From: Candidatus Omnitrophota bacterium | GTDB lineage: Bacteria; Omnitrophota; Gorgyraeia; Zapsychrales; Fredricksoniimonadaceae | NCBI GenBank assembly: GCA_903836515.1 | Contig: CAILQW010000040.1 | Span: 34,207 to 98,206, forward strand | DNA: 64,000 nucleotides | Direction of reading: 5' to 3' | Part shown: positions 7,814 through 55,884 of the stretch, one piece after another | Layout: every line of letters starts with the position of its first letter | How positions within the stretch are numbered: the first letter of the stretch is position 1 | Position numbers and translations under genes: made by a program | Notes under the pieces: model-generated | Seen by the model: only the letters and a program-made list of their open reading frames with translations | The model's database searches: none | What the model was told of the DNA's origin: nothing

Positions 7814-7814
7814 A

Positions 7815-8738: not shown

Positions 8739-8811
8739 GTACGTTCCTGTCCCTGCGGGTTGATGAACCCGGACCTTTTGCCTTGACTACCCCTGCCGCG
8801 CCTGCCCCGTC

Positions 8812-10104: not shown

Positions 10105-10143
10105 ATGTTCTCCATCTGTTTGAGCGACTATAAAATATAATTA

Positions 10144-10166: not shown

Positions 10167-10217
10167 CACTGCCATTTTTATTTGTCAAAAAATACACGCC
10201 ATGTACAAGAATGTAAC

Positions 10218-39881: not shown

Positions 39882-40787
39882 TTAAGACCCACCTGCCATA
39901 TTTTTCAACGGATTATTGTACATAAAATCAAGGAAGATCGGCGCGCCGACCAAGATACCAACTACTGGAAAAATACAAAAAAGGAGCGGCATTAACATCT
40001 TTAGCGGCGCCTTAAGGGCCATGGCCTCACCCCTGCGATAACGCGCCATACGCATGTCTTCGGAAAGAATGTTCAGGGCCTCACTTACAGACGTCCCCAT
40101 TTTATCAGCCTGGATCAAGGTCCTGGAAAATGTCGAAAGGTCGGGGATCTCGTACTTTTTCGCCAGATCGCGCAGGGCATCACGCCGCGGCTTACCTACG
40201 TTGATCTCCTGCAGGACGTTATTCATTTCGCTCAAAAGAAACGACGGACTTGATTTTTCGACCACCCACTTGAGCGCCATCATGAAGTCGAGCCCCGCAT
40301 TTACGCAAAGGCCCAACAGGTCCACCGTATCGGGTAACTGTTTAACAATGCTTTCCTTCGCCTTCTTGATCTTGCCGCGCAGCCAGAATTCCGGCAGAAA
40401 ATACGCCCCCCCGATCGATACCAGAAACCCAAACATCAACAGATCCTTGTTCAAAAAAGTAAAAGCTGTGTAAAAAAGAAAAATAAACAGGATTTCTTTG
40501 ATCAGCAGGAATTCTTCGGGAGAAATGCCTGTATGCGATACCGATATATTTTTCAGCATGTTCCGGCGCATGTCCTGGTTAATCAAGGGCTTGTTTAAAA
40601 CCGACATTCCCCGCAAAAAGGAAGAAACCAGGGATTTGCGCTCTGTCTTTTTTTTGGTCTGCTCGGAAGAAACGACCCCAAAATCATGCATTTTCAATGT
40701 CGGCCTGGCATCAAGGACATCCATCTTGACACCCATCACCACAAGCATCCCGCAGGCCACAATAAAAATAAACGCGATCGTCAGCAT
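39882..40787 (-). CDS. tadC: Flp pilus assembly inner-membrane platform protein TadC (GspF/T2SF family).
   Basis: 301 aa and multi-TM with the T2SF-like architecture. It lies immediately downstream of its paralog tadB (10-nt gap). Confidence 0.75.
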   Translation of the reverse strand: MLTIAFIFIVACGMLVVMGVKMDVLDARPTLKMHDFGVVSSEQTKKKTERKSLVSSFLRGMSVLNKPLINQDMRRNMLKNISVSHTGISPEEFLLIKEILFIFLFYTAFTFLNKDLLMFGFLVSIGGAYFLPEFWLRGKIKKAKESIVKQLPDTVDLLGLCVNAGLDFMMALKWVVEKSSPSFLLSEMNNVLQEINVGKPRRDALRDLAKKYEIPDLSTFSRTLIQADKMGTSVSEALNILSEDMRMARYRRGEAMALKAPLKMLMPLLFCIFPVVGILVGAPIFLDFMYNNPLKNMAGGS

Positions 40788-40796: not shown

Positions 40797-41654
40797 CTAA
40801 TCATTGAACGAACTGATCTTGATGATCAAAAATGTGCCCAGCAGCCACAGCCCGATAGAAACCATCATGAGCATCCGGCCAAGCTCGGTGGTGATCATGA
40901 CCTGAAAATATTTGGGATTGGTGGCATTGACCATAACAAAGAATGCCACCGGAAGACCGCTCATGACCGCCGCCTGCAATTTTCCCTGCACCGTCAATAC
41001 CATCAGATTTTCCTCAATTTTGCGCCGCTCGCGAATGGTCCCGACGATCCTTGAAAAAATAAGGGGAAGATTGCCGCCCGTTTCACGCGAAAGAAGGATG
41101 GCGCTGACCATCTGCTGCATGGCCGCGGAAGCCATTCTCTTGTACAAACGGTTCAACGCCTCATCAAAAGAGACACCCATTTTATTTTCACCCAGCACGA
41201 TCCCGAATTCATGACGGATGGGATCGGGCATTTCTTCAACCACCGCTTCCATGGACTGCACCAGGCTCATGCCGCCCCGCAGGGAACTGGACATGATCAT
41301 GAGCGCGTCAACAAGCTGGACATCAAATTGCTGTTTACGTTTTTTAAGAAGGCTCCCGGCATAAAGCCTGGGCAGGATCAGCCCTACCACGAATCCGCCC
41401 AAAAGCCCCGCGAAACGAAATTGCGTATCAGAAAAAAACATAAAACCCAGCACGGCGCAAATGAACGGGGCGATAATATACAAACGCTGGACAGCCTGGA
41501 TGTCTTCGGCGATCATGGAGCGGTCCATTTCGCGCGCAAAGTCCCTGGCGCGCTTCTGGTTCATTTCATGAACGCCTCTGACCGTGACAGGGATCACAAA
41601 ATAAACGCACAAGACCGCACATACAAAGATCAGGATAAAAATGACAGGAAGCAT
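40797..41654 (-). CDS. tadB: Flp pilus assembly inner-membrane platform protein TadB (GspF/T2SF family).
   Basis: 285 aa. An N-terminal TM precedes a cytoplasmic helical domain (ALMIMSSSLRGGMSLVQSMEAVVEEMPDP...GENKMGVSFDEALNRLYKRM) and C-terminal TMs. Confidence 0.75.
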   Translation of the reverse strand: MLPVIFILIFVCAVLCVYFVIPVTVRGVHEMNQKRARDFAREMDRSMIAEDIQAVQRLYIIAPFICAVLGFMFFSDTQFRFAGLLGGFVVGLILPRLYAGSLLKKRKQQFDVQLVDALMIMSSSLRGGMSLVQSMEAVVEEMPDPIRHEFGIVLGENKMGVSFDEALNRLYKRMASAAMQQMVSAILLSRETGGNLPLIFSRIVGTIRERRKIEENLMVLTVQGKLQAAVMSGLPVAFFVMVNATNPKYFQVMITTELGRMLMMVSIGLWLLGTFLIIKISSFND

Positions 41655-41669
41655 AGGATCATTTCTGGC

Positions 41670-42005
41670 TTATGGTTGGTTGCTGCAGGCTGCCTGACAG
41701 CCTGTCTTTACCCCGTCAACACACGCCCGATAGTCGGCCGCTCGCTTGCACGGCAGGACTGCGTTATTATAACAGGCCTGCGCGTACCACACATTCAATT
41801 GATCATCATACGCGCACTCAATGGTCGCATCGGGATTATACTGCCGTAAAAACCCGAAAGTCTCCGACACCTTGCGGTACTGCCCCTGCAATCCCCGCTG
41901 GATATAACTGCGAAAAGAAAAAACAACCGCCAATACAATAATGATCAGCACCACATACTCAAGCATGGCGAACGCTTTCTCTTGTTTCCAACAGGCCCCT
42001 GGCAT
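41670..42005 (-). CDS. Flp-type (class III signal peptide) pilin paralog with a Cys-rich C-terminal extension.
   Basis: Start taken at MMGAAMPGACWKQEKAFAMLEYVVLIIIVLAVVF. AFAMLEY fits the [GAS]-x4-E-[YF] Flp processing motif followed by a hydrophobic helix. The C-terminal half has 8 Cys (ECAYDD...QACYNNAVLPCKRAADYRACVDGVKTGCQAACSNQP). The longer ORF-track start at 42143 is rejected. Confidence 0.55.
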   Translation of the reverse strand: MPGACWKQEKAFAMLEYVVLIIIVLAVVFSFRSYIQRGLQGQYRKVSETFGFLRQYNPDATIECAYDDQLNVWYAQACYNNAVLPCKRAADYRACVDGVKTGCQAACSNQP

Positions 42006-42016
42006 AGCGGCTCCCA

Positions 42017-45000
42017 TCATTGGCTGCAGCATTCGGAACAACGACGAAATGTCATTTGCATCTTGTTGCCGGATATAAAATATCTGGCGCAGGTTTCCGA
42101 AACAACCCCCTTGCTCAACAAAGCCTCCGCCGCATTGTAACATTCGATCAACGGCCCTGGCATGGAAGACTCCAGGGGTAAATTGATCATGAAAGCTTCA
42201 TTCAGATTGTCCTGTGTCATGATGGCCGCGCTGGTATCTTCCAAACGGACATAACTGTTGGTCACATTCCCCGCGGCATCCCGTTCCGATTTACGGCTGT
42301 AATGGTTCTCGATGCAATTGCGGTAAATATCCGATACATTATAACCCACATCGGTATTCCTGTTGTGCGGATTACGGTAAAGAATTTGCCAGATAGGTAA
42401 TCCGCTTAACAACTTCAAAACCCCGCCCTGCGCTGGATCATGATCCTCGTCATATCGGATCACCCGGGTGCCCACACAACCATCCGCATCCGAAATCTCA
42501 TAACAACGCGTCATGCTCAAAATGCCTTCCGTATACGTTCTGATCCACGGGAATGTATTGGTACAGGTATTAAAACCCGCCCCTCCGTGTTTGGGGATAG
42601 CCGCTTCCACCTTGACCAGATGCAAATAACCCTTTCGCGTCGCCGCATTCGATGTGTTCCACGCGCCTGGCCGCGGGGAAAGCCAGCCATAAATGACCTG
42701 GTTGCCCAAATGAGGCGCCGCCGCGATCACGGCATCAATGGAATTGACCAGCCCGATGATCTGTTGGCCTTTACCCGCAATATCATCATGCGCTTTCTGC
42801 AACACAGGCAGAAAATCTTTCATGTGCTGGAGAAGATCTCTCAAATAAGCCGCACGGGCCTTCATTTTGATGCTTTGATTGACCGCCAACGTGGCACTGT
42901 TGGAAATTTTCTTGATGTAATCCGCTGAACACGTGCCCGCGGCAACGTTACGGCCCAAATCATTATTAGGATCAAATCCAGGAACAAGCGACCGGGGAAG
43001 ATCCTTGCACGCGGCCGCGGCAACACAGGCCGTTGGGTTGGCGCTCAAAGCGCCCGCACACGCCGCAAAAGCCTGATTCAAATTGCTGTTGTAATCCAGA
43101 CAACGCAGGACGCTGTCCACAGACCCCCAGGGCGATGGGGTCGCCAGGATATAATTCTTTTCTTTCGCGGTCATGGTGGTCAAGTCCGTCGGTAAACACC
43201 ACGCATTGGCATCTGTATACGGCCCCTTCAACCACGTGTTGATCTCATCGATCCAGCGCTGCATGCGCGCTTCCATCTTGCCCAGCTCCATCCCCTGGGC
43301 AATGACCGCAGCTTTCCAGGCCGCCACAGAATACGCCAATTGCGCCTGTGTGGCCGGATTTGTCGTCAATAACGGCGTTACCGTCTGCAAGAAATACGCC
43401 ATGCCGGTTGACATGGCATCAAAACCATCGTCATACCAGAGATCCTTGTGATCCACATTGGGACACATGCAATTGGCCGCAATAGCAGCCGGAGCACCCG
43501 CCGCATTGCAAACGCCAACGGGCTGGGATGAAGACCCCTGCTCCATTTTCACCGGATAAACAATATTGCTTGAGGGGTCCTGGAACGTATCCGAATAACG
43601 GTCAGCGCCCTTTTTCCATAACAGTTTCGTTCCTGCCTCTACCGCCGGATCCCGTGCACAGTCGCTATCTGCCACAGGCCTGAATGATTCAATGTCCGGG
43701 ACCACATCCAGTTTAAAATTGGAATAACTTAACGAACTGCTCACATTGTTATTGAAGGTATTCACACAACAATCTTCACCCACACAGGTTGGCAATGACA
43801 GCTGATCATATGCCGTCGTCCCCGCAGGACGGAAAAGGAGGCGTGTCGGGGTGGGCGGCGGTGAAAAAGGCGGCGTTGTCAGCGAACAGGGCGTGACGCG
43901 CTTGTCACACCAGTGACAACCCGGCGCTTCGGCACGCATGTCTGCGGCATTGATATCCTTTAACATCGGCGCCGTATCCGCCAACAGCCACAAGAACGGG
44001 AATATCTTGCCCGTGCTGTCCGCGCCGCGGAATATCGGCATCCAGGGATCCGGTATTTCCGCACCGGCAGAAAAATATTTTTTCTTGTTGGCATCATCCA
44101 TGCCCATCACGCTCAGGAAAGACGTGCTGACGTTCTTTTGAACATAAAGTGGATCATACGCATAACAAGCGGTCAACTGGTTCGCAGAAGGCGCACAGCC
44201 GGGAGCGCTCAAGCACTCCTGAGGTACCAACTCCGGCTTTTTAGGATCCAGGGAACAGGCCGCAGGCCGCATCGTCGGATCCGTACAACACGGATTGCAT
44301 TGCGGCCTTAACTGCGGACCAGTGCCCAGGTCAACATAACATACCGCCGGATTGCCGCCAGAAAGCCCCAGCGCATCCACAACGCCCTGTAACGTCTGGC
44401 GCAAGGTATCGATCGCCGTGGTGGGCGGTAACGGTATCCCCCGCATCCGGTCTGTGTAATAAAAGGCGAACCGCGAAACCTTGGCGGCAGGATCCCCCTT
44501 CTGAGGGTACTCCCGGATATACCAATGCGTGTTCCCATCAAGATCCCAACGGTCTGTCACCAGCACCGGATCCCCTGTTGCCAGATTCAAGGCGGTGCTG
44601 ATCCCGTTCTCCAGATACTTATCTTCAATGGTGGGCAGGTTCTTCTGCCATTTATTCCACATCTTTGTCAGGCCCGGCTGAACCACGGTTACCTGCAACA
44701 CAATGGCGGCAACGGCCAGTCCAATGGAAATAGCCGCCACCGTCCCTGCAGAAAGCCCCATGGCACTACCAGCGACCTCCCCAGCCCCAGGAATCACACA
44801 CGTAAGAACAACAATCGCCACCAAGGCAATGATGGCCGCCAAAACACCCGTAAACCCGCATTTTTTAGCTTCTCCACCCAACTGTGTCTGGATCAGATTC
44901 TCGCCATAACCAGCCATGAGCGAAACAAGCGCTGCCGCAGCACTGTTGGAGGCAATGGTCACCGTTGTCTTCGTTGACGCGATCCTGGACCAGTTGATGG

Positions 45001-45079
45001 TCACGGCGTACAAAACAAAGGCGACAGCAACCATCAGGATCACAACAAGGGACATTTGTCCTTTACGGGACAGTGGCAT
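42017..45079 (-). CDS. TadG-like pilus-associated protein, 1020 aa, with a very large Cys-rich extracellular domain (candidate tip adhesin).
   Basis: N-terminus GQMSLVVILMVAVAFVLYAV...SNSAAAALVSLMAGYG resembles the TadE/TadG N-terminal (Tad) domain. Additional TM/Gly-Ala helices follow, then ~800 aa with >40 Cys (e.g. CNPCCTDPTMRPAACSLDPKKPELVPQECLSAPGCAPSANQLTACYAYDP) ending in RRCSECCSQ. It is embedded in the tad operon. Confidence 0.55.
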   Translation of the reverse strand: MPLSRKGQMSLVVILMVAVAFVLYAVTINWSRIASTKTTVTIASNSAAAALVSLMAGYGENLIQTQLGGEAKKCGFTGVLAAIIALVAIVVLTCVIPGAGEVAGSAMGLSAGTVAAISIGLAVAAIVLQVTVVQPGLTKMWNKWQKNLPTIEDKYLENGISTALNLATGDPVLVTDRWDLDGNTHWYIREYPQKGDPAAKVSRFAFYYTDRMRGIPLPPTTAIDTLRQTLQGVVDALGLSGGNPAVCYVDLGTGPQLRPQCNPCCTDPTMRPAACSLDPKKPELVPQECLSAPGCAPSANQLTACYAYDPLYVQKNVSTSFLSVMGMDDANKKKYFSAGAEIPDPWMPIFRGADSTGKIFPFLWLLADTAPMLKDINAADMRAEAPGCHWCDKRVTPCSLTTPPFSPPPTPTRLLFRPAGTTAYDQLSLPTCVGEDCCVNTFNNNVSSSLSYSNFKLDVVPDIESFRPVADSDCARDPAVEAGTKLLWKKGADRYSDTFQDPSSNIVYPVKMEQGSSSQPVGVCNAAGAPAAIAANCMCPNVDHKDLWYDDGFDAMSTGMAYFLQTVTPLLTTNPATQAQLAYSVAAWKAAVIAQGMELGKMEARMQRWIDEINTWLKGPYTDANAWCLPTDLTTMTAKEKNYILATPSPWGSVDSVLRCLDYNSNLNQAFAACAGALSANPTACVAAAACKDLPRSLVPGFDPNNDLGRNVAAGTCSADYIKKISNSATLAVNQSIKMKARAAYLRDLLQHMKDFLPVLQKAHDDIAGKGQQIIGLVNSIDAVIAAAPHLGNQVIYGWLSPRPGAWNTSNAATRKGYLHLVKVEAAIPKHGGAGFNTCTNTFPWIRTYTEGILSMTRCYEISDADGCVGTRVIRYDEDHDPAQGGVLKLLSGLPIWQILYRNPHNRNTDVGYNVSDIYRNCIENHYSRKSERDAAGNVTNSYVRLEDTSAAIMTQDNLNEAFMINLPLESSMPGPLIECYNAAEALLSKGVVSETCARYFISGNKMQMTFRRCSECCSQ

Positions 45080-45093
45080 AGAAAAATCCTTGT

Positions 45094-45342
45094 TTATTTC
45101 TTATATAGCAATGTATCCATTGTCCGAACCTCGTGAAAATTCGGATTCACCTGCTGTTCTGTGGTCAAATTCTTGTTGCTCAAGATCGCATCATGATCAT
45201 ACCGCCGTTCCGCCATATCCATCATGCCCCAGCGAAAAACCTCGATCATGCCATAAACGATCAACGACAGGGCGATCATGCCTGCCGTAAATTCGAGGAT
45301 GCTCTGGGCTTTGTTTCTTTTATTAAAAAACACCATGCTCAT
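45094..45342 (-). CDS. TadE-like minor pseudopilin (82 aa).
   Basis: KRNKAQSILEFTAGMIALSLIVYGMIEVFRW matches the TadE-like N-terminal hydrophobic domain. Its start overlaps the upstream gene stop by 4 nt. Confidence 0.6.
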   Translation of the reverse strand: MSMVFFNKRNKAQSILEFTAGMIALSLIVYGMIEVFRWGMMDMAERRYDHDAILSNKNLTTEQQVNPNFHEVRTMDTLLYKK

Positions 45343-47129
45343 TTTGCCCCCAGGCTCTGCTGCCAGTCCTCATCGGTGGCCGTTACCCATTTGCGCCCGC
45401 GTTTGTCACTGATACGGCTTCGAATAAAAAGGGTCTTGGCATCCTTGTCAAAACATGTCTGCGCCGACCCCATGCAACAGCCGCCACCAATACCAATATA
45501 GGAATACCCCGTGGGCGTTGTCGCGGCGCCACCGCTGCATGACGTCTCGATGCTTTTATTCCTCGCCAGCAACGCGTCAGGATCGATCATGTTCACATTC
45601 AACTGCAAAATGCGCTCCACAACGTCATACTGGCTTTTTTTGACCGTGCTGATATTAAGCGGGGTCCCGTCCGATGAGTATTCCTTGCCCTCTCTCACAT
45701 CAAAATAAGTATACCCCCCGTCATTGGTCCGCGTATAGATCCGCATATCGGCGCGCATCCCCGGGCGCCGGTTAGGATCCACAAAATCCTCCGCACCCTT
45801 GGTCGTATCATAATCAGCAACAGCCGTATCCATGACGGACACAATGTAACCCTTGTACGCCCCGCACACCGTTGTCTTTCGGGGTGGCGTTTGCGCCGGA
45901 AAATTAGCTTCAATGAGAAGCCTGTTCAATTGCTGCAATTCCAGAACACTTAACACTTCTCCCGCCTTCAAACGATCAATGAACGCCGTGGTTGTGGCAG
46001 GCTGAACGGACATGGCTTGATACACGTTCGGGTCCACCAACAAACTGTTCAAGCGGTCGATCTCCGTTGCCCCGGCGGGAACCGTAATACCGCTGGCCTC
46101 AATAGCATCTATCAAGGCGGCCGGGGTCAGGGGCGCTGCAAATTCACTGATAGAAAAGATATACGGTGATTCCAGCTTTTCCAGATCATAAACCGTCTCT
46201 TCGGATAAATCACCATTGGTATCGTATGTTGGAAAATTCCCGTTATCCTTGTCGATCTTGCCGACCACCGTATCGATCGAATCCCACCGCCATTGCCACA
46301 TCGCATAATCATAATTGGGAAGGTCATCATCATAAAAGCCATTGCGCGTGTAATCAAACCGCCGCTGCGTATCCGCCGTCAGGCTGTAATCCGTATCATT
46401 GCTGACGATCGCCTGATAAAACGGCGGGTACCCGCCCTCGGGGTGATTGGTCCATTCATACACAAGCCGCTGACGCTGAACCTTGTTCTCAGCGCTGTTC
46501 AAATTGATAACACACGGGTCACCGGGACAGCTCTGCCGCCATCCGATCTTCCAGTTGATGTTCGGGTCCGTGGATGAGGAATTCAGGATCGGTGCCGGAC
46601 ATGCGCCCCCCTCAGGTTTATACATCATAATGACAACATCATCCGGGTTGGCATCTTCCAAACGCGCAGGAACGGCCGCCCCTTCTCTAAGAAGGATCTT
46701 GTAATGGACAAACGCGCTCGTGGTGAATTCAAACTCCTGCCCGTTCACCTTGACATCCATCATGGGCAGATCCTGGGGCTCGTTCCAGTCCACAGGCATG
46801 AAGACATTTTTGCTCAGCATGCCCGCCCCGGAAGCCGTGACCGGCTGGCGATCCTGGGATCCATAGCGACCGAAATCTCCATTCAAACGATCTTCGTAAT
46901 ATAAATATGAGGCACTGACCCGTGAATGTGTCCCGGCCTGAGACGACTGATAGGATTTCAGCATGGCGATGCGCATGGCCTGGAGCCGCGAGTTTTGCTG
47001 GAGAGAACCGGAAACGGCATTGAGAGCCATCCCCCCGATCAGGAAAAAAAGCACAGCGCCAAAAACCGCCAATTCAATGATGGATTGCGCGTTCTTTGAC
47101 GCCTTGACAGGGTCCTGATCGTTTTTCAT
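45339..47129 (-). CDS. Large (596 aa) TadE-like pseudopilin with an extended extracellular domain.
   Basis: The N-terminus KASKNAQSIIELAVFGAVLFFLIGGMALNAV is a TadE-type prepilin-like segment. It is followed by ~540 aa of W/Y/D/N-rich secreted-type sequence with 6+ Cys. Confidence 0.55.
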   Translation of the reverse strand: MKNDQDPVKASKNAQSIIELAVFGAVLFFLIGGMALNAVSGSLQQNSRLQAMRIAMLKSYQSSQAGTHSRVSASYLYYEDRLNGDFGRYGSQDRQPVTASGAGMLSKNVFMPVDWNEPQDLPMMDVKVNGQEFEFTTSAFVHYKILLREGAAVPARLEDANPDDVVIMMYKPEGGACPAPILNSSSTDPNINWKIGWRQSCPGDPCVINLNSAENKVQRQRLVYEWTNHPEGGYPPFYQAIVSNDTDYSLTADTQRRFDYTRNGFYDDDLPNYDYAMWQWRWDSIDTVVGKIDKDNGNFPTYDTNGDLSEETVYDLEKLESPYIFSISEFAAPLTPAALIDAIEASGITVPAGATEIDRLNSLLVDPNVYQAMSVQPATTTAFIDRLKAGEVLSVLELQQLNRLLIEANFPAQTPPRKTTVCGAYKGYIVSVMDTAVADYDTTKGAEDFVDPNRRPGMRADMRIYTRTNDGGYTYFDVREGKEYSSDGTPLNISTVKKSQYDVVERILQLNVNMIDPDALLARNKSIETSCSGGAATTPTGYSYIGIGGGCCMGSAQTCFDKDAKTLFIRSRISDKRGRKWVTATDEDWQQSLGAK

Positions 47130-47131
47130 GC

Positions 47132-47455
47132 CTACAGACCTGCGGGTTCCATTAATGTTGAACTTGTTTTTGCTTCAACAGAACTTGATGTGTCTTTCCT
47201 ATATGTAAAAGAACCATTGGAGCCGTTGACAATCCCCGGAACAACATAAAGTCGAGATTCGGATGTTGTGTCCGTCATATAATGTGTATTGCCATGAAAA
47301 CCCTGGGCATCATATTGCTCCCCGAGATCATCGACAGATTGTTTCCAGCGCCCCTGAAAACCACGCTTAATATAAACCTGCATGGTTAAAAAGGCGGCAA
47401 TAATGATCATGAGCAGGATCGAATACTCTAATAGACTTTGAGATTTCTTCATCAT
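47132..47455 (-). CDS. Flp-type pilin paralog.
   Basis: Start MMKKSQSLLEYSILLMIIIAAFLTMQVYIKRG. It has the [GAS]-x4-EY motif plus a hydrophobic helix and a Gly/Ser/Thr-rich tail. The ORF-track start at 47596 is rejected because it has no RBS and overlaps the upstream pilin gene. Confidence 0.7.
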   Translation of the reverse strand: MMKKSQSLLEYSILLMIIIAAFLTMQVYIKRGFQGRWKQSVDDLGEQYDAQGFHGNTHYMTDTTSESRLYVVPGIVNGSNGSFTYRKDTSSSVEAKTSSTLMEPAGL

Positions 47456-47456
47456 A

Positions 47457-47786
47457 TCAATCCTTGGTGAAACCCATATTGGTCTGCGAATTTGTGGACG
47501 TTTCCGTCCGCTCAAGAACCGCTGACGTGATCGTTCCGCCGTTATCGCCGCGCGTATTATCCACAGCGCCATGCGTTGACGTATTCGAAAATTCAAGATA
47601 GCCGCTGGTCCCGCTTGTCAGGTCCTGTTCAGCGTTCTTCTGATCGCCGATCTGATCTGCCGCCACCTTGATCATGCTCTGGGTTGTCCGCTTGACCCGC
47701 GGGAACATGTAAACAACCGCAGCCACCACCATGGATACCAGCAGGGCATATTCCATCAACGATTGCGCGCGGCGAGAAAAAAACAT
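47457..47786 (-). CDS. Flp-type pilin paralog.
   Basis: MFFSRRAQSLMEYALLVSMVVAAVVYMF... Confidence 0.7.
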   Translation of the reverse strand: MFFSRRAQSLMEYALLVSMVVAAVVYMFPRVKRTTQSMIKVAADQIGDQKNAEQDLTSGTSGYLEFSNTSTHGAVDNTRGDNGGTITSAVLERTETSTNSQTNMGFTKD

Positions 47787-47795
47787 GGCTCACCT

Positions 47796-48143
47796 CTACA
47801 TGGCATCCTTGGGCGCCAATTGTTCGCTGTTCGCATTAACACGGCGATCCGTGTTGATATCTTTTTGACGGCCAGCCGTTACTGTTTTTTCTTCTTCTTT
47901 AACACCGGCTTGTACGGCTGTAACAGAATTCACATAATATGGCTCATACTCAATCTGGACCGCATTACCGGATGCCCCTGCCGCCCGCATCACCATCAGC
48001 ATGTCAGCATCCCGGATACGCCCTTGAATAGTCCGGCGCACATACGTCGTCATGGTGATGATCGCGGCAATCACCACAAAAATCATAAGCACATATTCAG
48101 CGCTGATGCCCTGGGCTTTGGCAGTGCGGGAAATCTTCACCAT
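47796..48143 (-). CDS. Flp-type pilin paralog.
   Basis: MVKISRTAKAQGISAEYVLMIFVVIAAIITMTTYVRRTIQGR... Confidence 0.7.
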   Translation of the reverse strand: MVKISRTAKAQGISAEYVLMIFVVIAAIITMTTYVRRTIQGRIRDADMLMVMRAAGASGNAVQIEYEPYYVNSVTAVQAGVKEEEKTVTAGRQKDINTDRRVNANSEQLAPKDAM

Positions 48144-48213
48144 AAACTTCCCTTATTGAAAAATAAAACCAGGAAGGGCGCATGAAGACCCTTCCTGGTT
48201 CATCATTGACCCA

Positions 48214-48528
48214 TTAATTCCCCCAATACTCCCCATACGCATTCGTTCCGATCCTGCGGTATGAATTCGTGATCGTATCTGCCATCAAGTTGGTGCTGGC
48301 AACCCCCTGGACATTGTTGTCCCTGATCGAGGAATTCGTCGTCACAACTTTATAAAAATTGGCAGCCTTCGCATCCGAATACTGATCACCGATATCATCC
48401 GTCGCACTTTGTAAACGGCCCTGTATACCACGTTTGATATAAGTCTGCAAGGTCAGCAGCGCGGCGATGATAATGACCATCAAAATCGCATATTCCAGCA
48501 CGCTCTGACCGCTTTTTGTTTTTAACAT
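48214..48528 (-). CDS. Flp-type pilin paralog.
   Basis: Start MLKTKSGQSVLEYAILMVIIIAALLTLQTYIKRGIQGR. The ORF-track start at 48666 is rejected. Confidence 0.7.
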   Translation of the reverse strand: MLKTKSGQSVLEYAILMVIIIAALLTLQTYIKRGIQGRLQSATDDIGDQYSDAKAANFYKVVTTNSSIRDNNVQGVASTNLMADTITNSYRRIGTNAYGEYWGN

Positions 48529-48547
48529 AATAAATACCTTCCTTTCA

Positions 48548-48925
48548 TTAGTAACCACTGGCGGCTTCACCACTGAGCGCGCTATTGGATGCACTAACAG
48601 TATTCTTGTTGTAATTTGTCGTATCGACATAGCCCGCGGCCCTCTTGGTGCTGATGGTCGTATCAAGCTGTTGGTCTATGGTCTGCTCTTTCTTTGAGCC
48701 TTTGTCTGTCTGTGCGCTTGTATTGGTATAATACGGCTCATACTGCAGGGTATTGCCGATCTCCGTGGTGCTGTCACGGAACATCACGCTCGCATCACGC
48801 AAGCGGCCCTGCAACGTGCGCTGAGCATACGTCTGCATGGCGATAACACCGCCAACAACCAACGCGATCAAAATCGCATATTCGGCGGTATTTTGAGCCT
48901 TTTTGTTTTTAAATAATTTTAACAT
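48548..48925 (-). CDS. Flp-type pilin paralog.
   Basis: Start MLKLFKNKKAQNTAEYAILIALVVGGVIAMQTYAQRTLQGR. Confidence 0.7.
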   Translation of the reverse strand: MLKLFKNKKAQNTAEYAILIALVVGGVIAMQTYAQRTLQGRLRDASVMFRDSTTEIGNTLQYEPYYTNTSAQTDKGSKKEQTIDQQLDTTISTKRAAGYVDTTNYNKNTVSASNSALSGEAASGY

Positions 48926-49006
48926 TCTGTCCTCCTCCAATTAAAACTTTTAAGATCATCGTAAACACGATAAAATGCCTTTTAACTTCAGAACGACCGC
49001 ACACTC

Positions 49007-49195
49007 TTAATGCGAATTTGACAAACGATCCGAGAATTTAGCCATTGTATCAACACCGTCTCCCAGTGTCGCATTCAATGTCTTGCGAAACGGCGAATCC
49101 GGTTTTACAACAAGACCAATAATAATGACGATAACCGCGGTGACCAAAAGCACATATTCCAGCGTGCTTTGACCCTTTCGATGACATCTTGACAT
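49007..49195 (-). CDS. Flp-type pilin paralog (62 aa).
   Basis: MSRCHRKGQSTLEYVLLVTAVIVIIIGLVV... GAGGAGG RBS lies 5-6 nt upstream. Confidence 0.7.
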   Translation of the reverse strand: MSRCHRKGQSTLEYVLLVTAVIVIIIGLVVKPDSPFRKTLNATLGDGVDTMAKFSDRLSNSH

Positions 49196-49220
49196 AGTAT
49201 CCTCCTCATTATAAGAACGC

Positions 49221-49379
49221 TTATTCTGCCTTGAATTCCTCGGTCATTTCTTTTTGCTTCGACTGGACAGCACGATACACATAAGTACTCATCGCAACAG
49301 CTGCTGCCGAGATGATGGCAACGACAAGGGCGTATTCCACCACGTTTTGACCTTTGTTACGAAACTTCAATAACCCCAT
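49221..49379 (-). CDS. Flp-type pilin (52 aa); below the ORF-track length cut-off.
   Basis: The reverse-strand translation reads MGLLKFRNKGQNVVEYALVVAIISAAAVAMSTYVYRAVQSKQKEMTEEFKAE. AAGGA lies 7 nt upstream of the ATG (complement of 49377-49379). It is first in the pilin array and nearest the upstream promoter region, so it is a candidate major pilin. Confidence 0.65.
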   Translation of the reverse strand: MGLLKFRNKGQNVVEYALVVAIISAAAVAMSTYVYRAVQSKQKEMTEEFKAE

Positions 49380-49683
49380 CGCTGTTCCTTATGTATTTTA
49401 AAGAAACGCCGCCCGGGACCCTGTGAAAAAATATAATATCAGGGTGGGAATTCATCCCGAGCCTCTATGTTGACTGTGGTCACCCACGTCAACCCGGTCC
49501 AGTCCATGCCATCCCCTGGTTCCGGTGATATTCCGTTATAAAAACGGAACTATGAGACCTCCTGTGTAAGCATTTTTAAGCACACGCAAAATCTGTAAGA
49601 GTATAACATGTATAAAGATGCTGTCAATGTTAGGTCCAGGGGTTTTAATGCATATTTCCATGGATGAGGGGCAAAGAATAGGC

Positions 49684-51525
49684 CTAAAGGGATGCTTTTT
49701 CAATTGAAAAATGCCATCTTTTGTTGTGGTGCTCTTCAAATATATTGCTATTTATTCTATTAATTAGGGTTTCGACCTGTTGTGTATAAGAAAACCCTTC
49801 AGGAAGGATCAACCGGATGAGAGCAAGACCTTGCCGTTGCTGAAAATAACCGGAAAGACAATAGAGCGACTGTAAAATGCCGTGATCTTCTATATCTAAA
49901 AATTTATATTTAATATATTCTTCAAAAATATGTACTAATTTTTGTAATGTAAACTTTTTAGTTCCATCCTCTTCATTATGAATTGATTTATTCAGTGTTT
50001 CTTGAATGTATTTTTTTGTTTTATTATCATTATCTTCTATTTTAAAATTTAATAACTTTGCTAAATTATCATTTATTATGCTAGTTACTGTGTGATTTTC
50101 ACTCTCTATATTTGTCAAAAAAATAATTTTCTTTTCTTTTCCCTGTAGAGAAACAACAACAGCGCGTAAAACATCAGCCTCTCCATCCATCGGCGTGAAA
50201 CGATAGGAGCCCCCTAAAATGTTATATTTCTTATCTAATATTGAATTGTATATGGATTGAGGATTTTTTATCACTTCAAATTCTATGTTTTCAAGCGAAA
50301 ATTGCTCCTCATCAAAACCTGCTATAAAACAAATCTTCCGCCCCGCCTTGATATCAGATTCCCATATTAAATTATTGTTTTTCCCCCACAAAGAAATTTT
50401 TTCCGGGTTTTCAGCTCCAGAACCATTTAAAACAGAGATCATTTTTCTGACGGCGGGAACAAGACCTTGCGGGCAATTGAAAACAAGCGGTTTTATGGGG
50501 AAAACCACACGATCAACCGCGTCATCTATAGCCTTAATCATCGGGAAAGAGGATCCCGTTGGTGCTGTCTCAAATATCTGGGTAAGATCATCACTCAAAA
50601 AATAATTATGGCCGCCATTGGTCTTAATACAAAAATATCCATTCTTAAGAAAAACGAGCTCTAGCTCTGCTTCAATCGCTGCCCTGAAAACTATAGATGT
50701 AAAATCTTTCTCTAAAAATTGTTCTAGCGACGCCTGGCCTTTCTTACGATCAAGATCAAGCAAGGTCCACACAACATCAGAACTTACGGCATGGGCATCA
50801 ACCATCCCGCCTCGGCCCAACGCTGTGAACAAAATAACAGCTTCCAGCATTCTAGCGTTCGCTACCGTCTGACGACCATCCTGAGACAAAAAGGTCGAAA
50901 CCATCGGCCGCCGTAAACTATCTGACAAAACCGCTTCAAGAAACGCGATTCCCATATTTTCAAATATTGGCCCTTTTTCACCCGACCAGAAAAATTCATC
51001 TTTTAACGGGACAAAATCTATAGGGCGTTCCTGGGTGAACTGGCCTATTGACAAGCTGTTCCTCAACCGATCTGGTCCAAGTTTTAATAGTTCGGGGATA
51101 TCTTCAAAAAAATCATCGGATTCATCAGGATTTAACATATCGGCTTGCGTTATAACCTGATGGCCTTCTGTTTGCACTTCTGCCGGCAACTCAATTCCCT
51201 TCCCATTTTCAGAAAGATCCCCCTCAGTGGTACTACAGGGCACTGGCTGAACAATGTTAGCATCCGGAAGAAACGGAATAACTTGGGCTAATAATTGATC
51301 TTTTTTATCTTTGGGAATATAAAAATTCTGGGAAGGTTTGCGACCGACTGGACTGCTAAGCTTATACTCTTTGATAACCGCATTAATCGAAGATTTTGAA
51401 ACTTCTATGTGAAATACTTCTTTTAATAGTGCTGCAATTTTACGACAGCTTAACGATGGGTCATTTTTTTTCTTTTCTACAATGACTTGAACAACTTCTT
51501 TTTTTAATTTGTATATCACGCCCAT
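49684..51525 (-). CDS. 613-aa protein with an N-terminal HTH, encoded by a compositionally distinct (low-GC) segment; unknown function, possibly a horizontally acquired regulator or mobile-element protein.
   Basis: N-terminus LSCRKIAALLKEVFHIEVSKSSINAVIKEY is HTH-like. The 3' half (forward coordinates ~49700-50400) is strongly AT-rich and Lys/Asn/Ile-rich, unlike all flanking genes. It interrupts the tad locus between the tadZA-DUF192 genes and the flp array. Confidence 0.5.
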   Translation of the reverse strand: MGVIYKLKKEVVQVIVEKKKNDPSLSCRKIAALLKEVFHIEVSKSSINAVIKEYKLSSPVGRKPSQNFYIPKDKKDQLLAQVIPFLPDANIVQPVPCSTTEGDLSENGKGIELPAEVQTEGHQVITQADMLNPDESDDFFEDIPELLKLGPDRLRNSLSIGQFTQERPIDFVPLKDEFFWSGEKGPIFENMGIAFLEAVLSDSLRRPMVSTFLSQDGRQTVANARMLEAVILFTALGRGGMVDAHAVSSDVVWTLLDLDRKKGQASLEQFLEKDFTSIVFRAAIEAELELVFLKNGYFCIKTNGGHNYFLSDDLTQIFETAPTGSSFPMIKAIDDAVDRVVFPIKPLVFNCPQGLVPAVRKMISVLNGSGAENPEKISLWGKNNNLIWESDIKAGRKICFIAGFDEEQFSLENIEFEVIKNPQSIYNSILDKKYNILGGSYRFTPMDGEADVLRAVVVSLQGKEKKIIFLTNIESENHTVTSIINDNLAKLLNFKIEDNDNKTKKYIQETLNKSIHNEEDGTKKFTLQKLVHIFEEYIKYKFLDIEDHGILQSLYCLSGYFQQRQGLALIRLILPEGFSYTQQVETLINRINSNIFEEHHNKRWHFSIEKASL

Positions 51526-51622
51526 AGTTTTTTGTCCATTCTGGACATTTCCACTATACCATGAAGAACAAAGATATCAATCAAGGATTGCGAAAAATTA
51601 ACCTTTTATTCATTATAACTTT

Positions 51623-51967
51623 TTAAGAAACAATCTGCATTTGATCGCCCAACGATGTTTTAGTCCGCTCAATGGTGCCGGTGGGAAGCTCTAAGACCTT
51701 GTCTGCTTTCCAAAAAATAGGGCTGAGTTGATTGGGCTTAATATGCCTCACCAACCCAACAACGTGACTATTGCGGTCAAGGAATACAGCATCAATCGCA
51801 AATTTCATAAAAAACATATGGATTGAATTGCAGTGCGTAATAATGAGACATTGTCCGTCCTTAAATGATGGTACTCCCAAAAGACCACGTGCACGCGTGA
51901 AAAAAGTATCCGCAAGCCATGCCTCCAGAGAAAGGACATTGTTATTCGTAAGATTTTTTATGATCAC
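51623..51967 (-). CDS. DUF192 (COG1430) family protein.
   Basis: 114 aa. Conserved-looking blocks ARGLLGVPSFKDGQCLIITHCNSIHMFFMKFAIDAVFLD are typical of DUF192. It overlaps the upstream tadZ-tadA stop (coupled). Confidence 0.5.
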   Translation of the reverse strand: MIIKNLTNNNVLSLEAWLADTFFTRARGLLGVPSFKDGQCLIITHCNSIHMFFMKFAIDAVFLDRNSHVVGLVRHIKPNQLSPIFWKADKVLELPTGTIERTKTSLGDQMQIVS

Positions 51968-54150: not shown

Positions 54151-55884
54151 TCAATTATGTGTTGCGACATTCTTAAGGAATGAATCCAAACTGTACACAA
54201 TAGAAACAACGATCTGCGTCTTATCTGACTGAGCAGACTGGGGCGGCGCTGAATAAGGCGCAAGGATTTGTGCGGTATTGACCGCATCCTGATCAAACAC
54301 CTTATACCCTGAAGATTCCTTGACCTTTACATCCTTAAGCGTGCCTTCTTTATCAAGGGTCAGGGCAAGTTTGACCGTTCCCTGCCAATTCTTTTCCTGA
54401 GCTTCGTACGGATACGCGATGGCAGACGCAATTTTGTTCTGGATCGTTAACGCATAATTTTCAAGCGCGGTCGCACCGGCCACAACCGGCGGCTTGACGG
54501 CCTCAATGGGCTTTGACGCAACGCCAGTTGCGGATGCAGGCGCCACCACAGCAGCCTTGACCGGAAGCCTGGCTTCAATTTTTTGTTCGGGCAGCTTGGT
54601 CTCTGAAGTTATATCCGCACTTTTCCCTGAACGTAAAATCGTGGGTGTAATGGAAATTACAACTTCTGTTTCCTCATTGGCCACCGGTGTCTTGGTGCTT
54701 CGAAAAAGCATCCCGACCACCGGGATACGGCTCATGAACGGAACACGCCGGACCAATTCATTGTCCCGGCGCTTGATCATCCCGGCCAAAACAATCGTTT
54801 GCTTATCTTCCAGCAAAAGCTGGGTATTAGCAGAACGTGTCAAGAACGCCACATCCGTTCCTGTGGGTTTAGAGGTATCAATTTCACTGATCTCGGCATG
54901 CAAAAGGATATTGACCAAATGGCCCGCCTGAATGGACGGCGTGATCGCCATGCTGACGCCATACTCTTTAAATTCCACGTTTTGCTGGGTCGAACCGCCG
55001 CTGGCACTGGTTGTTGTGGTCTTGATGGGGATTTCACCGCCCACCAGGAATGTGGCCTCTTTGCCGCTGATGACAACAAGGCGCGGCTTGGAAAGGACTT
55101 TCGCCTTCCCTTCCTGGATCATGGCATTGATCGCCGCAATCAGGGCATTCGTGCGGCTAAAATCACCAACTTTCCAGAGGTCCTTGAAAGAACCGTTGCC
55201 CTTGGGAATAGATATTGACGATGGCAGGTTTTCCTGATAATTGGCGGTCAAATCGCTGGTCGCAGTCCCCGTCCCCCAATCCACACCCATAGCTTTTGTG
55301 AGTGTTGTTGAAAGTTCGGTGATCTGCATGTCAATCTGGATCAAATCCTCGATCTTTTCTTTTTGAACAAGATTAATAACACGGTCGGAAAAAGGCTCTA
55401 TCACTTTAGTCAGCACATCCATCTTCTCTTCGGTCAGACTGCCTGTGATAACAACCTTGCCTTCATCCGCATTTTCATTGAGCGTCACCCCGAGCACGCC
55501 CGCCCCTGTCAGCAAGCTTTGGACTCTTTTTTTGACAAGCCCGGTGTCCTCCTGAACAACACGGATGACAACCGTGCGCTTACCGCCGTCATCCCAGATA
55601 AACAGGATTGTTTGTCCTGCCTCAATGCCGATCACGTCGACGGCGTCGGCACGGGCATCATTGATATCCGCCACCACAGGATCGGTGATGGAAACACGTT
55701 TCAAATTTTTGGCAGGAATGCTTTGAATGTCTCCCTTTAAAACCTGAATCTCTTCATAGGCGCGCGTCGAAGGAACAACGGGCGCCGCCCAAAGAGCGGC
55801 CGGCGTCCCGCCCAAAAGAAAAGCGGCAACACCCAGCAGCATCAACGGGGTTTTCATGATTTTAAACAAAAAAAACGTGCCCAT
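54151..55884 (-). CDS. cpaC: CpaC/RcpA-type secretin with an appended C-terminal TonB_C-like domain.
   Basis: Signal peptide MKTPLMLLGVAAFLLGGTPAALWA. N-terminal pilus-formation (BON-like) domain. The secretin core is VVISGKEATFLVGGEIPI...VLAGMIKRRDNELVRRVPFMSRIPVVGMLFRSTKTPVANEETEVVISITPTILR. The last ~100 aa (AIAYPYEAQEKNWQGTVKLALTLDKEGTLKDVKVKESSGYKVFDQDAVNTAQILAPYSAPP) match the TonB C-terminal domain pattern (YP..A...eGtV.l.f.i...G.v.dv.v..SSG...lD.aA). Its start overlaps the cpaB stop by 1 nt. Confidence 0.8.
   Translation of the reverse strand: MGTFFLFKIMKTPLMLLGVAAFLLGGTPAALWAAPVVPSTRAYEEIQVLKGDIQSIPAKNLKRVSITDPVVADINDARADAVDVIGIEAGQTILFIWDDGGKRTVVIRVVQEDTGLVKKRVQSLLTGAGVLGVTLNENADEGKVVITGSLTEEKMDVLTKVIEPFSDRVINLVQKEKIEDLIQIDMQITELSTTLTKAMGVDWGTGTATSDLTANYQENLPSSISIPKGNGSFKDLWKVGDFSRTNALIAAINAMIQEGKAKVLSKPRLVVISGKEATFLVGGEIPIKTTTTSASGGSTQQNVEFKEYGVSMAITPSIQAGHLVNILLHAEISEIDTSKPTGTDVAFLTRSANTQLLLEDKQTIVLAGMIKRRDNELVRRVPFMSRIPVVGMLFRSTKTPVANEETEVVISITPTILRSGKSADITSETKLPEQKIEARLPVKAAVVAPASATGVASKPIEAVKPPVVAGATALENYALTIQNKIASAIAYPYEAQEKNWQGTVKLALTLDKEGTLKDVKVKESSGYKVFDQDAVNTAQILAPYSAPPQSAQSDKTQIVVSIVYSLDSFLKNVATHN

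Follow-up and report, generated by a model that had tools for sequence, protein, structure and literature searches.

Eight small Flp-like pilin classes and three larger pilin-like proteins encoded in a conserved order within one Tad-type operon of a Candidatus Omnitrophota bacterium

Why would a single Tad-type operon encode so many different pilins, and would their products be built into one fibre, used in place of each other, or serve another purpose? The question is raised by a 64,000-nt stretch of DNA from a Candidatus Omnitrophota bacterium (GCA_903836515.1, contig CAILQW010000040.1, positions 34,207-98,206 of the forward strand), here called the window. We scanned the whole window in six frames for the prepilin pattern [GAS]-x4-E-[YFL] followed by an uncharged hydrophobic 14-mer and found nine matches. 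They lie on the minus strand from 41975 to 49352, within the pilin operon, and there are none elsewhere; Markov shuffles gave a mean of 0.13 matches and a maximum of one. Every gene of the cluster is preceded by a Shine-Dalgarno sequence, the intergenic gaps are 1-81 nt, public gene callers give the identical gene set, and conserved homologues were found for all three of the pilin genes searched. An earlier sequence-only reading had described at least nine small Flp-type pilin paralogs. The dense same-strand cluster that it described is real, but the count of small pilins is eight: the region 47132-49379 contains seven genes (52, 62, 125, 104, 115, 109 and 107 aa) instead of the eight proposed, among them the 52-aa gene that it rightly added to the open reading frame track, and the further pilin at 41670-42005 (111 aa, Cys-rich) was confirmed. 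Three more proteins with the same N-terminal pattern (45339-47129, 45094-45342 and 42017-45079) had been overlooked, so that the operon holds 11 pilin-like genes, eight small and three larger (596, 82 and 1020 aa), all on the minus strand.

The array is flanked by a TadZ-TadA fusion and by TadB/TadC, with RcpC and a secretin upstream (all coordinates below refer to the minus strand). RcpC/CpaB (55884..56732; PF16976, 86 bits) is followed by an RcpA/CpaC-type secretin with a C-terminal TonB_C domain (54151..55884; domain search), an architecture also present in the related loci L083 and L085, and by the fusion of a ParA/MinD-like domain to a T2SSE ATPase (51964..54141; domain search), which is 62% identical to a protein from an Omnitrophota MAG and about 40% identical over its full length to that of Bdellovibrio. 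A conserved partner of the locus is the DUF192 protein (51623..51967; PF02643, 65 bits), also present in L083; in L003, a 113-aa ORF directly upstream of the pilins resembles its counterpart, as judged by eye. Between DUF192 and the pilins lies a conserved protein of 613 aa whose N-terminus gives a weak HTH match (49684..51525; domain search), and L083 has a 629-aa protein at the equivalent position. On the other side of the array are the TadB-like (40797..41654; PF00482, 58 bits) and TadC-like (39882..40787; PF00482, 54 bits) platform proteins with T2SSF domains. The locus also includes a Rotamase_2 PPIase, and the operon is followed by a 748-aa protein, a giant ORF (7270 aa), two PilZ genes, and then GH94, ABC sugar uptake and GH2 genes. 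Its nearest relatives are in Candidatus Omnitrophota MAGs. So many pilins are indeed out of the ordinary. We compared 84 loci, namely the window, three others of the Omnitrophota type and 80 neighbourhoods of TadZ-TadA relatives. As a rule these contain 0-4 small class-III ORFs, and counts of six or more are confined to Omnitrophota-type loci and one other MAG.

We assigned the small pilins to classes A to H. Class A (p1, 52 aa, KG/QNVVEY, 49221..49379) has a mature form of about 42 aa and matches Flp_Fap with 20 bits, and 13 of 18 orthologues match that family at E<=0.01; its homologues are 63-100% identical and some are named Flp. It is canonical Flp-like and a candidate major pilin. Together with the surrounding Tad genes, this supports the proposal that the pilins are Flp-like and belong to a Tad system. 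Class B (p2, 62 aa, KG/QSTLEY, 49007..49195) scores 23.1 bits against Class_IIIsignal, just under the cut-off of 23.7, and its orthologues in L083, L084 and L085 give weak PF04021 matches. Class C (p3, 125 aa, KA/QNTAEY, 48548..48925) has a C-terminal domain with a QYEPYY motif and is 53-56% identical to its positional orthologues. Class D (p4, 104 aa, SG/QSVLEY, 48214..48528), with a DDIGDQY motif and an EYWG C-terminus, has 188 homologues conserved over their full length, mostly in Omnitrophota, and matches 4017 cluster representatives at E<=1e-3. Class E (p5, 115 aa, 47796..48143) is a paralog of class C with a YEPYY motif, class F (p6, 109 aa, RA/QSLMEY, 47457..47786) has a tail rich in Thr, Ser, Gly and Asn, and class G (p7, 107 aa, KS/QSLLEY, 47132..47455) is a paralog of class D with a DDLGEQY motif. 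Class H (111 aa, KA/FAMLEY, 41670..42005) is the Cys-rich member; eight Cys had been counted in its tail, but the ORF has seven. [quoted passage not shown]

The alpha-1 region is of a compatible kind in all eight pilins, with Glu5 and Tyr6, a hydrophobic helix and the motif Y-x-x-R, and the C-terminal domains are very different between classes and conserved within each. The [GAS]-x4-E spacing once ascribed to all of them holds for most, but class E (KA/QGISAEY) has five residues between the small residue and the Glu, which is therefore at +6. The L084 orthologue shares the extra residue, and those of L083 and L085 lack the Glu. The C-terminal extensions, given previously as up to about 100 aa, are about 55-75 aa beyond a canonical mature Flp of about 45 aa, counted from the assumed cleavage sites. 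None of the eight reaches a Pfam gathering threshold, and no match to N_methyl was found. AF2 models, of low to moderate confidence (pLDDT 64 and 69) and with no match to a solved fold, predict for class D a helix (10-44) and four beta strands (pLDDT 64), and for the class H C-terminal domain (60-107) a beta hairpin and two helices (pLDDT 73-88).

The larger proteins are also positionally conserved. The 596-aa protein (NA/QSIIEL and a hydrophobic helix, 45339..47129), whose sole Pfam signal is a weak PF13400 Tad match (12 bits), has orthologues of 512-514 aa in L083 and L084 and is a candidate tip or minor pilin. The 82-aa protein (KA/QSILEF, 45094..45342) gave no match in a Pfam search, has orthologues of 96-103 aa in the same two loci, and may be TadE-like, as judged from its position and N-terminus. 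The Cys-rich 1020-aa protein (KG/QMSLVV, without Glu5, 42017..45079) belongs to no Pfam family found, has counterparts of 1396-1602 aa in both loci, and is TadG-like by position and a candidate tip component. Domain searches recognised no TadE, TadF or TadG domain in the three proteins. Tip-most subunits such as GspK typically lack Glu5, and we counted the displaced or missing Glu of class E in favour of a tip or minor role.

We then compared the arrays between genomes. The pilin classes recur in identical order in L003, L083, L084 and L085, and the best between-locus match of each paralog is its positional orthologue, with 45-56% identity to L083/L084 for the better conserved classes A-D and 30-42% for classes E-H. 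The same classes in the same order across Omnitrophota MAGs imply that these are old, fixed paralogs. A sigma-70-like promoter (TTGACA-16-TATACT with a TG extension, 11/12; 49600..49627) lies about 220 nt upstream of p1, and an equivalent of conserved sequence is found 270-350 nt upstream of class A in L083, L084 and L085. Between p4 and p5 is an intrinsic-terminator-like hairpin (48166..48201; z = -3.5), with a 14-bp stem (7 GC pairs) followed by UUUUAUUUUU. A strong hairpin and U-run are present 3′ of class D in all four loci with an intergenic gap there (the window, L083, L084 and L085). Since the start codon of p5 follows the hairpin by just 22 nt, p5 and the later genes must rely on read-through. 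The class D gene of L003 overlaps that of class E, so no hairpin is present there, and hence the attenuator is not universal. Individual promoters were not detected for most pilin genes.

The absence of any TadV-type peptidase from the genome had been named as an observation that would refute the reading. No prepilin peptidase is encoded in the 64-kb window, but this does not count as a refutation by itself, since the related Omnitrophota-type loci have no linked A24 peptidase either and the similar TadZA system of B. bacteriovorus, which lacks TadV, has its Flp1 processed by the unlinked T4aP peptidase PilD (bioRxiv 10.64898/2026.07.08.737194).

In summary, the locus is probably the pilin repertoire of an Omnitrophota Tad-type (type IVc) pilus machine, with eleven prepilin-like proteins encoded in one operon; the conserved order, the common alpha-1 features and the operon structure fit the heteropolymeric or multi-subunit use suggested before. 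The reality of the genes, their motif, operon membership, conservation and order, and the promoter and terminator motifs are shown by the present analysis. For cleavage, stoichiometry, fibre and tip roles, and biological role, we infer the following. Each prepilin would be inserted in the inner membrane and cut after Gly, Ala or Ser by an unlinked A24 enzyme, so that the mature protein begins with Gln (or Phe) and carries Glu at +5. The subunits would then be joined through their common N-terminal helix by the TadZ-TadA ATPase and the TadB/TadC platform, and the fibre would leave through the secretin. The eight old, fixed small classes and the three large proteins, kept in order across genomes, would not be interchangeable. 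Gene order and analogy suggest that p1-p4, encoded between the conserved promoter and the hairpin, are probably the pilins produced in excess, and that the body of the fibre consists of them: the short canonical Flp A, the short B, and C and D with their small beta-rich C-terminal domains. Classes E, F and G, the 596-, 82- and 1020-aa proteins and class H, expressed at a lower level by read-through, may act as a minor-pilin/tip complex that initiates the fibre or caps it. Predatory Tad systems and the neighbouring giant gene suggest, by analogy, that such a fibre could attach to host or prey cells or help to attack them.

It is unlikely that the machine is instead a type II secretion-like exporter, in which a short periplasmic pseudopilus built from the small pilins, one of them major and several minor, would push substrates through the secretin, in place of a long surface pilus. 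Its substrates could be the 7270-aa protein, glycoside hydrolases or the 596- and 1020-aa proteins. In favour of this reading are the layout of the window, from the operon through the giant ORF and PilZ genes to GH2, and the fact that multiple distinct pseudopilins are the T2SS norm. However, the components are Tad-type (RcpC, TadZ fused to TadA, split TadB/TadC), the motif is the Flp-type G/QxxxEY and not the T2SS/T4aP G/FTLIE with N_methyl, and class A is a canonical short Flp. Fibre and secretion functions are compatible with each other.

Quite unlikely, in our view, is that the paralogs are alternative major pilins, from which a single machine would assemble one homopolymeric fibre or another, or fibres that differ in their heads, according to condition or host. 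Adhesion would then be redundant or specialised, as with the six PilA pilins of Haloferax volcanii or the exchangeable tips of Kil. The compatible alpha-1 of all eight and their strongly divergent, class-specific C-terminal domains would allow it, and Kil tip efficiency does depend on the prey (PMC12075869). Against this, the genes are co-transcribed in a tight operon, no promoter of its own was detected for most of them, and the fixed order and single attenuator favour a fixed stoichiometry over subunit choice. Phase or antigenic variation, in which paralogs would recombine or be switched on and off, as the sequence-only reading had also proposed, would suit many paralogs in tandem but is highly improbable, because they match each other with only 20-67 bits (14-35% identity to p1 among the eight small pilins and the 82-aa protein), their sole DNA repeat is a stretch of about 30 nt coding for GQSxLEY (67-83% identity), the array contains no flanking or promoter-flanking inverted repeats, tandem repeats, homopolymer or short-repeat tracts, no long repeats or invertible elements were found, and each paralog has its positional orthologue in distant genomes.

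We finally compared the proposed multi-subunit Tad fibre with known systems. Archaeal type IV adhesion pilins with class III signal peptides, such as M. maripaludis EpdA-E and H. volcanii PilA1-6, also come as several paralogs per system. They share with the array the KG/Q cleavage context with Gln at +1, a family to which p2 is marginal (PF04021), and the alpha-1 helix with a small beta-rich head predicted for class D, several homologues of which carry the JGI name 'UPF0333 family'. The machinery here is nevertheless bacterial and Tad-type (secretin, RcpC, split TadB/TadC), as opposed to a single archaeal PilC-like platform, and no archaeal homologues were retrieved. Like the Flp/Tad systems of Aggregatibacter (Flp1) and Caulobacter (PilA), the locus combines a G/XXXXEY-type prepilin motif and hydrophobic helix, an operon with secretin, RcpC, TadZ, TadA, TadB and TadC genes, and a first pilin that is an all-helical Flp of about 42 aa when mature. 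It differs in the number of small pilins (eight, compared with 1-3), of which six are 104-125 aa long and have an extra 55-75-aa C-terminal domain. Further differences are Gln at +1, TadZ fused to TadA, a secretin with TonB_C and no TadV in the locus, and none of its pilins reaches the PF04964 gathering score.

The Kil system of M. xanthus has one major Flp, two adapter Flps and 12 tip minor pilins (PMC12075869). Judged by gene set, both have one Tad-type machine with a large repertoire, in which a major Flp is accompanied by short Flps as adapters and by large minor pilins, rich in Cys, that would form a tip; a predatory context and a dispensable or shared peptidase are further common features. 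Kil pilins, however, are spread over several loci with four paralogous KilLMN triplets, whereas here the large proteins form a single set of three, encoded in one operon with the seven small pilins in tandem and the Cys-rich pilin. The Tad system of B. bacteriovorus (flp1-4, in loci without TadV; bioRxiv 10.64898/2026.07.08.737194) shares the hybrid TadZ-TadA ATPase and several flp genes, but its genes are dispersed over several loci and encode short Flp pilins; no more than 1-2 class-III ORFs were found near TadZA in the Bdellovibrio loci that we compared. Tad systems are known in Omnitrophota, and their TadB/TadC group with those of Bdellovibrionales (PMC10066038). In a conserved locus upstream of Omnitrophota giant genes, "many small genes with class III signal peptides" were noted by West-Roberts et al. 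(2023 preprint). That locus is of the same type, with Rotamase_2 PPIase, RcpC, secretin, ATPase, GspF-like platform proteins and small class-III genes, followed by the giant gene, PilZ genes and sugar-uptake and glycoside-hydrolase genes. The pilin array is real, but it documents in detail a type of locus that had been described next to Omnitrophota giant genes before. In the part of that preprint considered here, the small genes receive one sentence and are not split into classes; to this, the present analysis adds the division into eight classes that keep a fixed order, the member rich in Cys, the partition by promoter and terminator, and the assignment to Tad rather than T2SS.

In a listing of ORFs of at least 30 aa, the genes between 40000 and 51000 form a run on the minus strand without interruption, and this run holds seven tandem pilin genes (p1 to p7) and a Cys-rich pilin gene further downstream (pH). 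The products begin with a short basic leader and a small residue; Gln, three more residues, Glu-Tyr and a hydrophobic helix follow. Their mature lengths were counted from assumed cleavage sites (marked by slashes). The tandem genes, all on the minus strand, are p1 (49221-49379, 52 aa, MGLLKFRNKG/QNVVEY, mature 42), p2 (49007-49195, 62 aa, MSRCHRKG/QSTLEY, mature 54), p3 (48548-48925, 125 aa, ...KNKKA/QNTAEY, mature 115), p4 (48214-48528, 104 aa, MLKTKSG/QSVLEY, mature 97), p5 (47796-48143, 115 aa, ...RTAKA/QGISAEY with Glu at +6, mature 105), p6 (47457-47786, 109 aa, MFFSRRA/QSLMEY, mature 102) and p7 (47132-47455, 107 aa, MMKKS/QSLLEY, mature 102). On the same strand follow genes for a 596-aa protein (45339-47129, ...ASKNA/QSIIEL, mature 582), an 82-aa protein (45094-45342, ...KRNKA/QSILEF, mature 70), a 1020-aa protein (42017-45079, MPLSRKG/QMSLVV without Glu, mature 1013) and pH (41670-42005, 111 aa, ...KQEKA/FAMLEY, mature 100).

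A six-frame pattern scan of the whole window found nine matches to the prepilin motif, all on the minus strand at 41975-49352, compared to a mean of 0.13 in shuffled sequence; the strict pattern misses p5, which has one extra residue, and the 1020-aa protein, which lacks the Glu. Every gene of the array has a Shine-Dalgarno sequence, with gaps of 1-81 nt or overlaps between genes, and the public gene calls for identical contigs give the very same products (52, 62, 125, 104, 115, 109, 107, 596, 82, 1020 and 111 aa). The ORF listing, the motif scan and the matching gene calls therefore give seven tandem pilins and not eight. Hence, the array described in the sequence-only reading stands, as do its small pilins, but the stretch at 47132-49379, to which eight pilins had been ascribed, holds seven by the ORF listing, making eight small pilins overall with pH; the pilin-like 596-, 82- and 1020-aa proteins had been overlooked, and the mature part of pH carries six conserved Cys rather than the eight counted then.

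The G/XXXXEY motif (small residue, four residues, Glu-Tyr/Phe) fits seven of the eight small pilins, p5 having five intervening residues, and all eight have about 20 uncharged hydrophobic residues right behind it. None of the pilins reaches a Pfam gathering score: for Flp_Fap (PF04964, threshold 32.2 bits), p1 scored 20 bits, p4 13 bits and the others gave no score, and for Class_IIIsignal (PF04021, threshold 23.7 bits), p2 (23.1) and p5 (15.2) were both below. Orthologues of p1 matched Flp_Fap at E<=0.01 in 13 of 18 cases (best 2.4e-6), those of p2 have 'weak' precomputed PF04021 matches, and pH matches Flp1_like in Pfam with 18 bits. The short first pilin is thus consistently Flp-like when judged across its family. 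The size of a short prepilin (about 50-80 aa, no globular head) fits p1 and p2; p3-p7 and pH, with 104-125 aa and a conserved C-terminal domain, lie outside it. As for type II secretion pseudopilins (GspG-K), Pfam gave no match to N_methyl or to a T2SS pseudopilin family among the pilins, the motif is G/QxxxEY and not G/F(M)TLIE, and NCBIfam offered XpsH at E=0.13 only, with no meaningful family for any pilin.

The structural predictions were in keeping with a headed pilin. The AF2 model of the p4 class (class D; 51 sequences, pLDDT 64) has an N-terminal helix at 10-44 and four beta strands at 59-92, and that of the pH class (class H; 10 sequences) has a helix and a compact C-terminal domain (pLDDT 73-88), made of a beta hairpin and two helices, which holds the six conserved Cys. 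Foldseek searches of the PDB with these models, of low to moderate confidence, gave no match at E<=0.001, and PDB sequence searches with p1 and with the class D profile were no more informative, a Geopilin domain at E=1.1 being the sole match. The two models thus fit a helix-plus-small-head pilin architecture, a fit too weak to bear more weight.

The machinery around the pilins is that of a Tad (type IVc) system, with the exception of a linked TadV. The gene at 51964-54141 encodes a TadA-type T2SSE ATPase (PF00437, 198 bits) whose N-terminal half is a TadZ/CpaE ParA-like part (AAA_31, CbiA and ParA matches); TadB and TadC are two separate platform proteins with one T2SSF domain (PF00482) each (40797-41654 and 39882-40787), and a secretin (PF00263 and PF13629, RcpA/CpaC; 54151-55884) and RcpC/CpaB (PF16976; 55884-56732) are present. 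The 596-, 82- and 1020-aa proteins fit TadE/TadF/TadG by position and N-terminus; with the profiles for these (PF07811, PF13400), the 596-aa protein gave a weak 12-bit PF13400 match and the other two no match. The secretin also has a C-terminal TonB_C domain (63 bits; minus strand), a fusion kept in two related loci (L083 and L085), which may anchor it to peptidoglycan or the periplasm.

No A24 peptidase was found in the window, either by Pfam on the larger ORFs or by a GxGDxK scan of ORFs of at least 100 aa, and the same scan found no A24-motif ORF in the Omnitrophota-type loci; elsewhere, it gave a hydrophobic ORF in 30 of 86 sequences, about 28 of them TadV-like (170-300 aa, GxGDVK). The locus thus appears to have no dedicated TadV; the sequence-only reading had made its pilin assignment depend on a TadV-type peptidase somewhere in the genome. 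However, the fusion of TadZ (ParA/MinD-like) to TadA resembles the TadZA hybrid of B. bacteriovorus, which is also without TadV and whose prepilin peptidase is PilD, and type IVa pilus genes are common in Omnitrophota (PMC10066038). That no peptidase gene lies in the locus is thus to be expected, and the pilin assignment is not refuted by it.

We compared the number of small class-III ORFs in 84 loci scanned alike: the whole window, three more loci of the Omnitrophota type, and 80 neighbourhoods that reach about 10 kb to either side of TadZ-TadA relatives in many phyla. None was found in 28 loci, one in 24, two in 15, three in eight, four in three, and six or more in six. These last are the window, four Omnitrophota-type loci (L003, L083, L084 and L085) and a locus from an unclassified MAG, L025. 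The earlier statement that most Tad systems have one to three flp genes is upheld by this count. In L025, six tandem short Flp genes (749-2099; mature products of 44-54 aa), without C-terminal domains, lie beside a TadZ-TadA homologue and are an independent case of an Flp array.

The same pilin series was found in the same order in L003, which came from the genome scan, and in L083, L084 and L085, which came from look-ups of p4 homologues. Its classes A to G correspond to p1 to p7: A (about 52 aa) is Flp-like; B (62-71 aa) is a marginal Class_IIIsignal match; C (about 120 aa) carries QYEPYY; D (about 105 aa) DDIGDQY...EYWG; E (115-123 aa) YEPYY, with the Glu at +6 or absent; F (about 110 aa) VKRTxQxMIKV; and G (about 105 aa) RGIQGRWR...DDLGDQYDP. 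Then come a large protein (512-596 aa) and a small one (82-103 aa), both with a pilin-like N-terminus, a second large protein (1020-1602 aa) whose pilin-like N-terminus lacks the Glu, and the Cys-rich class H (111-170 aa), with TadB and TadC next. For classes A-D, F, G and H, the best inter-locus BLASTP matches in L083 and L084 are the positional orthologues, and for class E this holds in L084 only; identities to these two loci are 45-56% for A-D and 30-42% for E-H. Inside the window, C/E and D/G are most alike (66-67 bits), and the remaining pairs score 20-48 bits. The classes are therefore ancient and fixed paralogs whose roles differ.

The full-length conservation of class D extends to 188 proteins, in which residues 1-55 hardly vary and the C-terminal half varies more. 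With E<=1e-3 as the limit, its profile picked out 4017 cluster representatives from among 1.84 billion. The 21 'repeats' of its C-terminal profile in P0252 (3148 aa) were set aside, since this Thr/Gly/Ser/Ala-rich repeat protein matches by composition. The named p4 homologues are all from Omnitrophota except for one MAG labelled Phycisphaerae, that of L085; since this locus is otherwise of the Omnitrophota type, the bin label may be wrong. Its class E pilin is apparently split into ORFs of 52 and 72 aa (10555-10945), which could reflect a frameshift, a pseudogene or an assembly error.

Phase variation of the pili and recombination between the paralogs, both raised in the sequence-only reading, found no support. 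The sole repeated DNA is a stretch of about 30 nt encoding GQSxLEY (67-83% identity), and the repeat searches gave no inverted repeats around the promoter, no tandem repeats and no recombination substrate.

The promoter itself, at 49627-49600, is near-consensus (TTGACA-N16-TATACT with a TG extension), and L083, L084 and L085 keep both its sequence and its place 220-350 nt ahead of class A. The 5' leader between promoter and first pilin is likewise 220-350 nt long (window, 49380-49600, minus strand; L083, 8724-9075; L084, 172-440; L085, 8729-9067), and its sequence is poorly conserved beyond the promoter; across 41000-52000, Rfam matched no RNA family at E<=1, and this long 5'-UTR thus has neither a riboswitch nor a leader of a known kind. 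Directly 3' of class D, all four of these loci have a long perfect hairpin with a U-run behind it; the one in the window, at 48201-48166, has a stem of 14 bp and scores z = -3.5. The p5 start codon follows it there after no more than 22 nt, so the downstream genes need read-through. We infer a candidate attenuator, which would set A-D high and the remaining genes low; it would not be universal because L003 has no gap after class D. Such control of expression is known for the major pilin genes of other Tad operons.

Every gene of the window lies on the minus strand, and their order is gyrB, gyrA, mdh, a Rotamase_2 PPIase, RcpC, the secretin and the TadZ-TadA fusion; then DUF192, a 613-aa protein, the seven pilins, the 596-, 82- and 1020-aa proteins, pH, TadB and TadC; and then a 748-aa protein, a 7270-aa giant ORF, two PilZ genes, GH94, an ABC sugar importer and a GH2/TPR protein. 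The TadZ-TadA fusion shares 62% and 50% identity with proteins from Candidatus Omnitrophota MAGs, and its full-length identity to those from Bdellovibrio and many other phyla is about 40%. Together with the names of the p4 homologues, this marks the window as part of an Omnitrophota contig. The DUF192 gene (51623-51967, minus strand) lies directly behind it with a stop/start overlap, a neighbourhood also seen in L083 (6081-6425), and a 113-aa ORF beside the pilins of L003 (10645-10986) resembles it by eye and may be its counterpart. The 613-aa protein (49684-51525, minus strand) has a weak N-terminal HTH only and lies where the GC of the window is lowest (0.39-0.43). A transposase insertion, suggested at first by this low GC and by weak HTH_Tnp matches, was dropped; since L083 has a 629-aa protein at the same position, the 613-aa protein is, by size and position, probably a component of the locus, and possibly a regulator.

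Between TadC and the giant ORF, a secreted-looking 748-aa protein (37416-39662, minus strand) matches no Pfam family and contains an internal duplication, NAQGNNxFDWRNKIKRS...AAFLQPDHxKLPxGMMV occurring twice. The giant ORF (15182-36994, minus strand) follows directly downstream of the Tad-like operon; Pfam matches nothing in it but a weak Peptidase_C39 near the N-terminus (22.4 bits), and it corresponds to the Omnitrophota 'giant gene' loci described in the literature. Two PilZ-domain genes (13037-13420 and 13462-13815, minus strand; 45 and 48 bits) come immediately after it, with GH94, the ABC sugar importer and the GH2/TPR protein behind them (4617-12944).

Omnitrophota are widespread, uncultured and ultra-small bacteria, thought to be predators or parasites, for which V. 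archaeovorus is the sole available enrichment culture. The Tad-like locus beside their giant genes is among the few conserved loci that are candidates for host contact. Tad complexes and giant ORFs have been described across the phylum (Seymour et al. 2023, PMC10066038), and a 2026 preprint reports the same association of giant genes with secretion and pilus flanks. In the locus described by West-Roberts et al., PilZ, solute-binding/ABC transporter and glycoside-hydrolase genes follow the giant gene; the layout behind the giant ORF here is the downstream layout given there, and the window agrees with their locus description gene for gene.

In summary, the pilin array, once corrected, is real and well defined; it exemplifies a known system, in a lineage where this locus had been noticed before. 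What had been 'many small genes' resolves into eight conserved pilin classes and three large pilin-like proteins, which follow one fixed order. The additions made here are the sorting into classes, the fixed order, the Glu-shifted class E and the six-Cys class H, as well as the partition by promoter and terminator and the evidence against phase variation. The pilin classes, a likely break in expression after the fourth pilin and the absence of a linked peptidase offer concrete targets for proteomics, cryo-ET and AlphaFold-multimer.

A bolder proposal, which we regard as improbable, is that the four co-transcribed pilins, two bare Flp helices and two Flp-derived with small beta-rich heads, would build a composite fibre with a large Cys-rich tip, mechanistically coupled to the display or delivery of the giant protein in host attack; if true, this would be a Tad lineage that evolved headed pilins anew and took on export of a T2SS-like kind. 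A large pilin repertoire for a single Tad machine is established in the Kil system of M. xanthus, where 15 pilins serve one machine (PMC12075869). The locus represents no new kind of system; it makes Omnitrophota a second lineage, besides Myxococcus with Kil, whose Tad machine employs more than 10 pilins.
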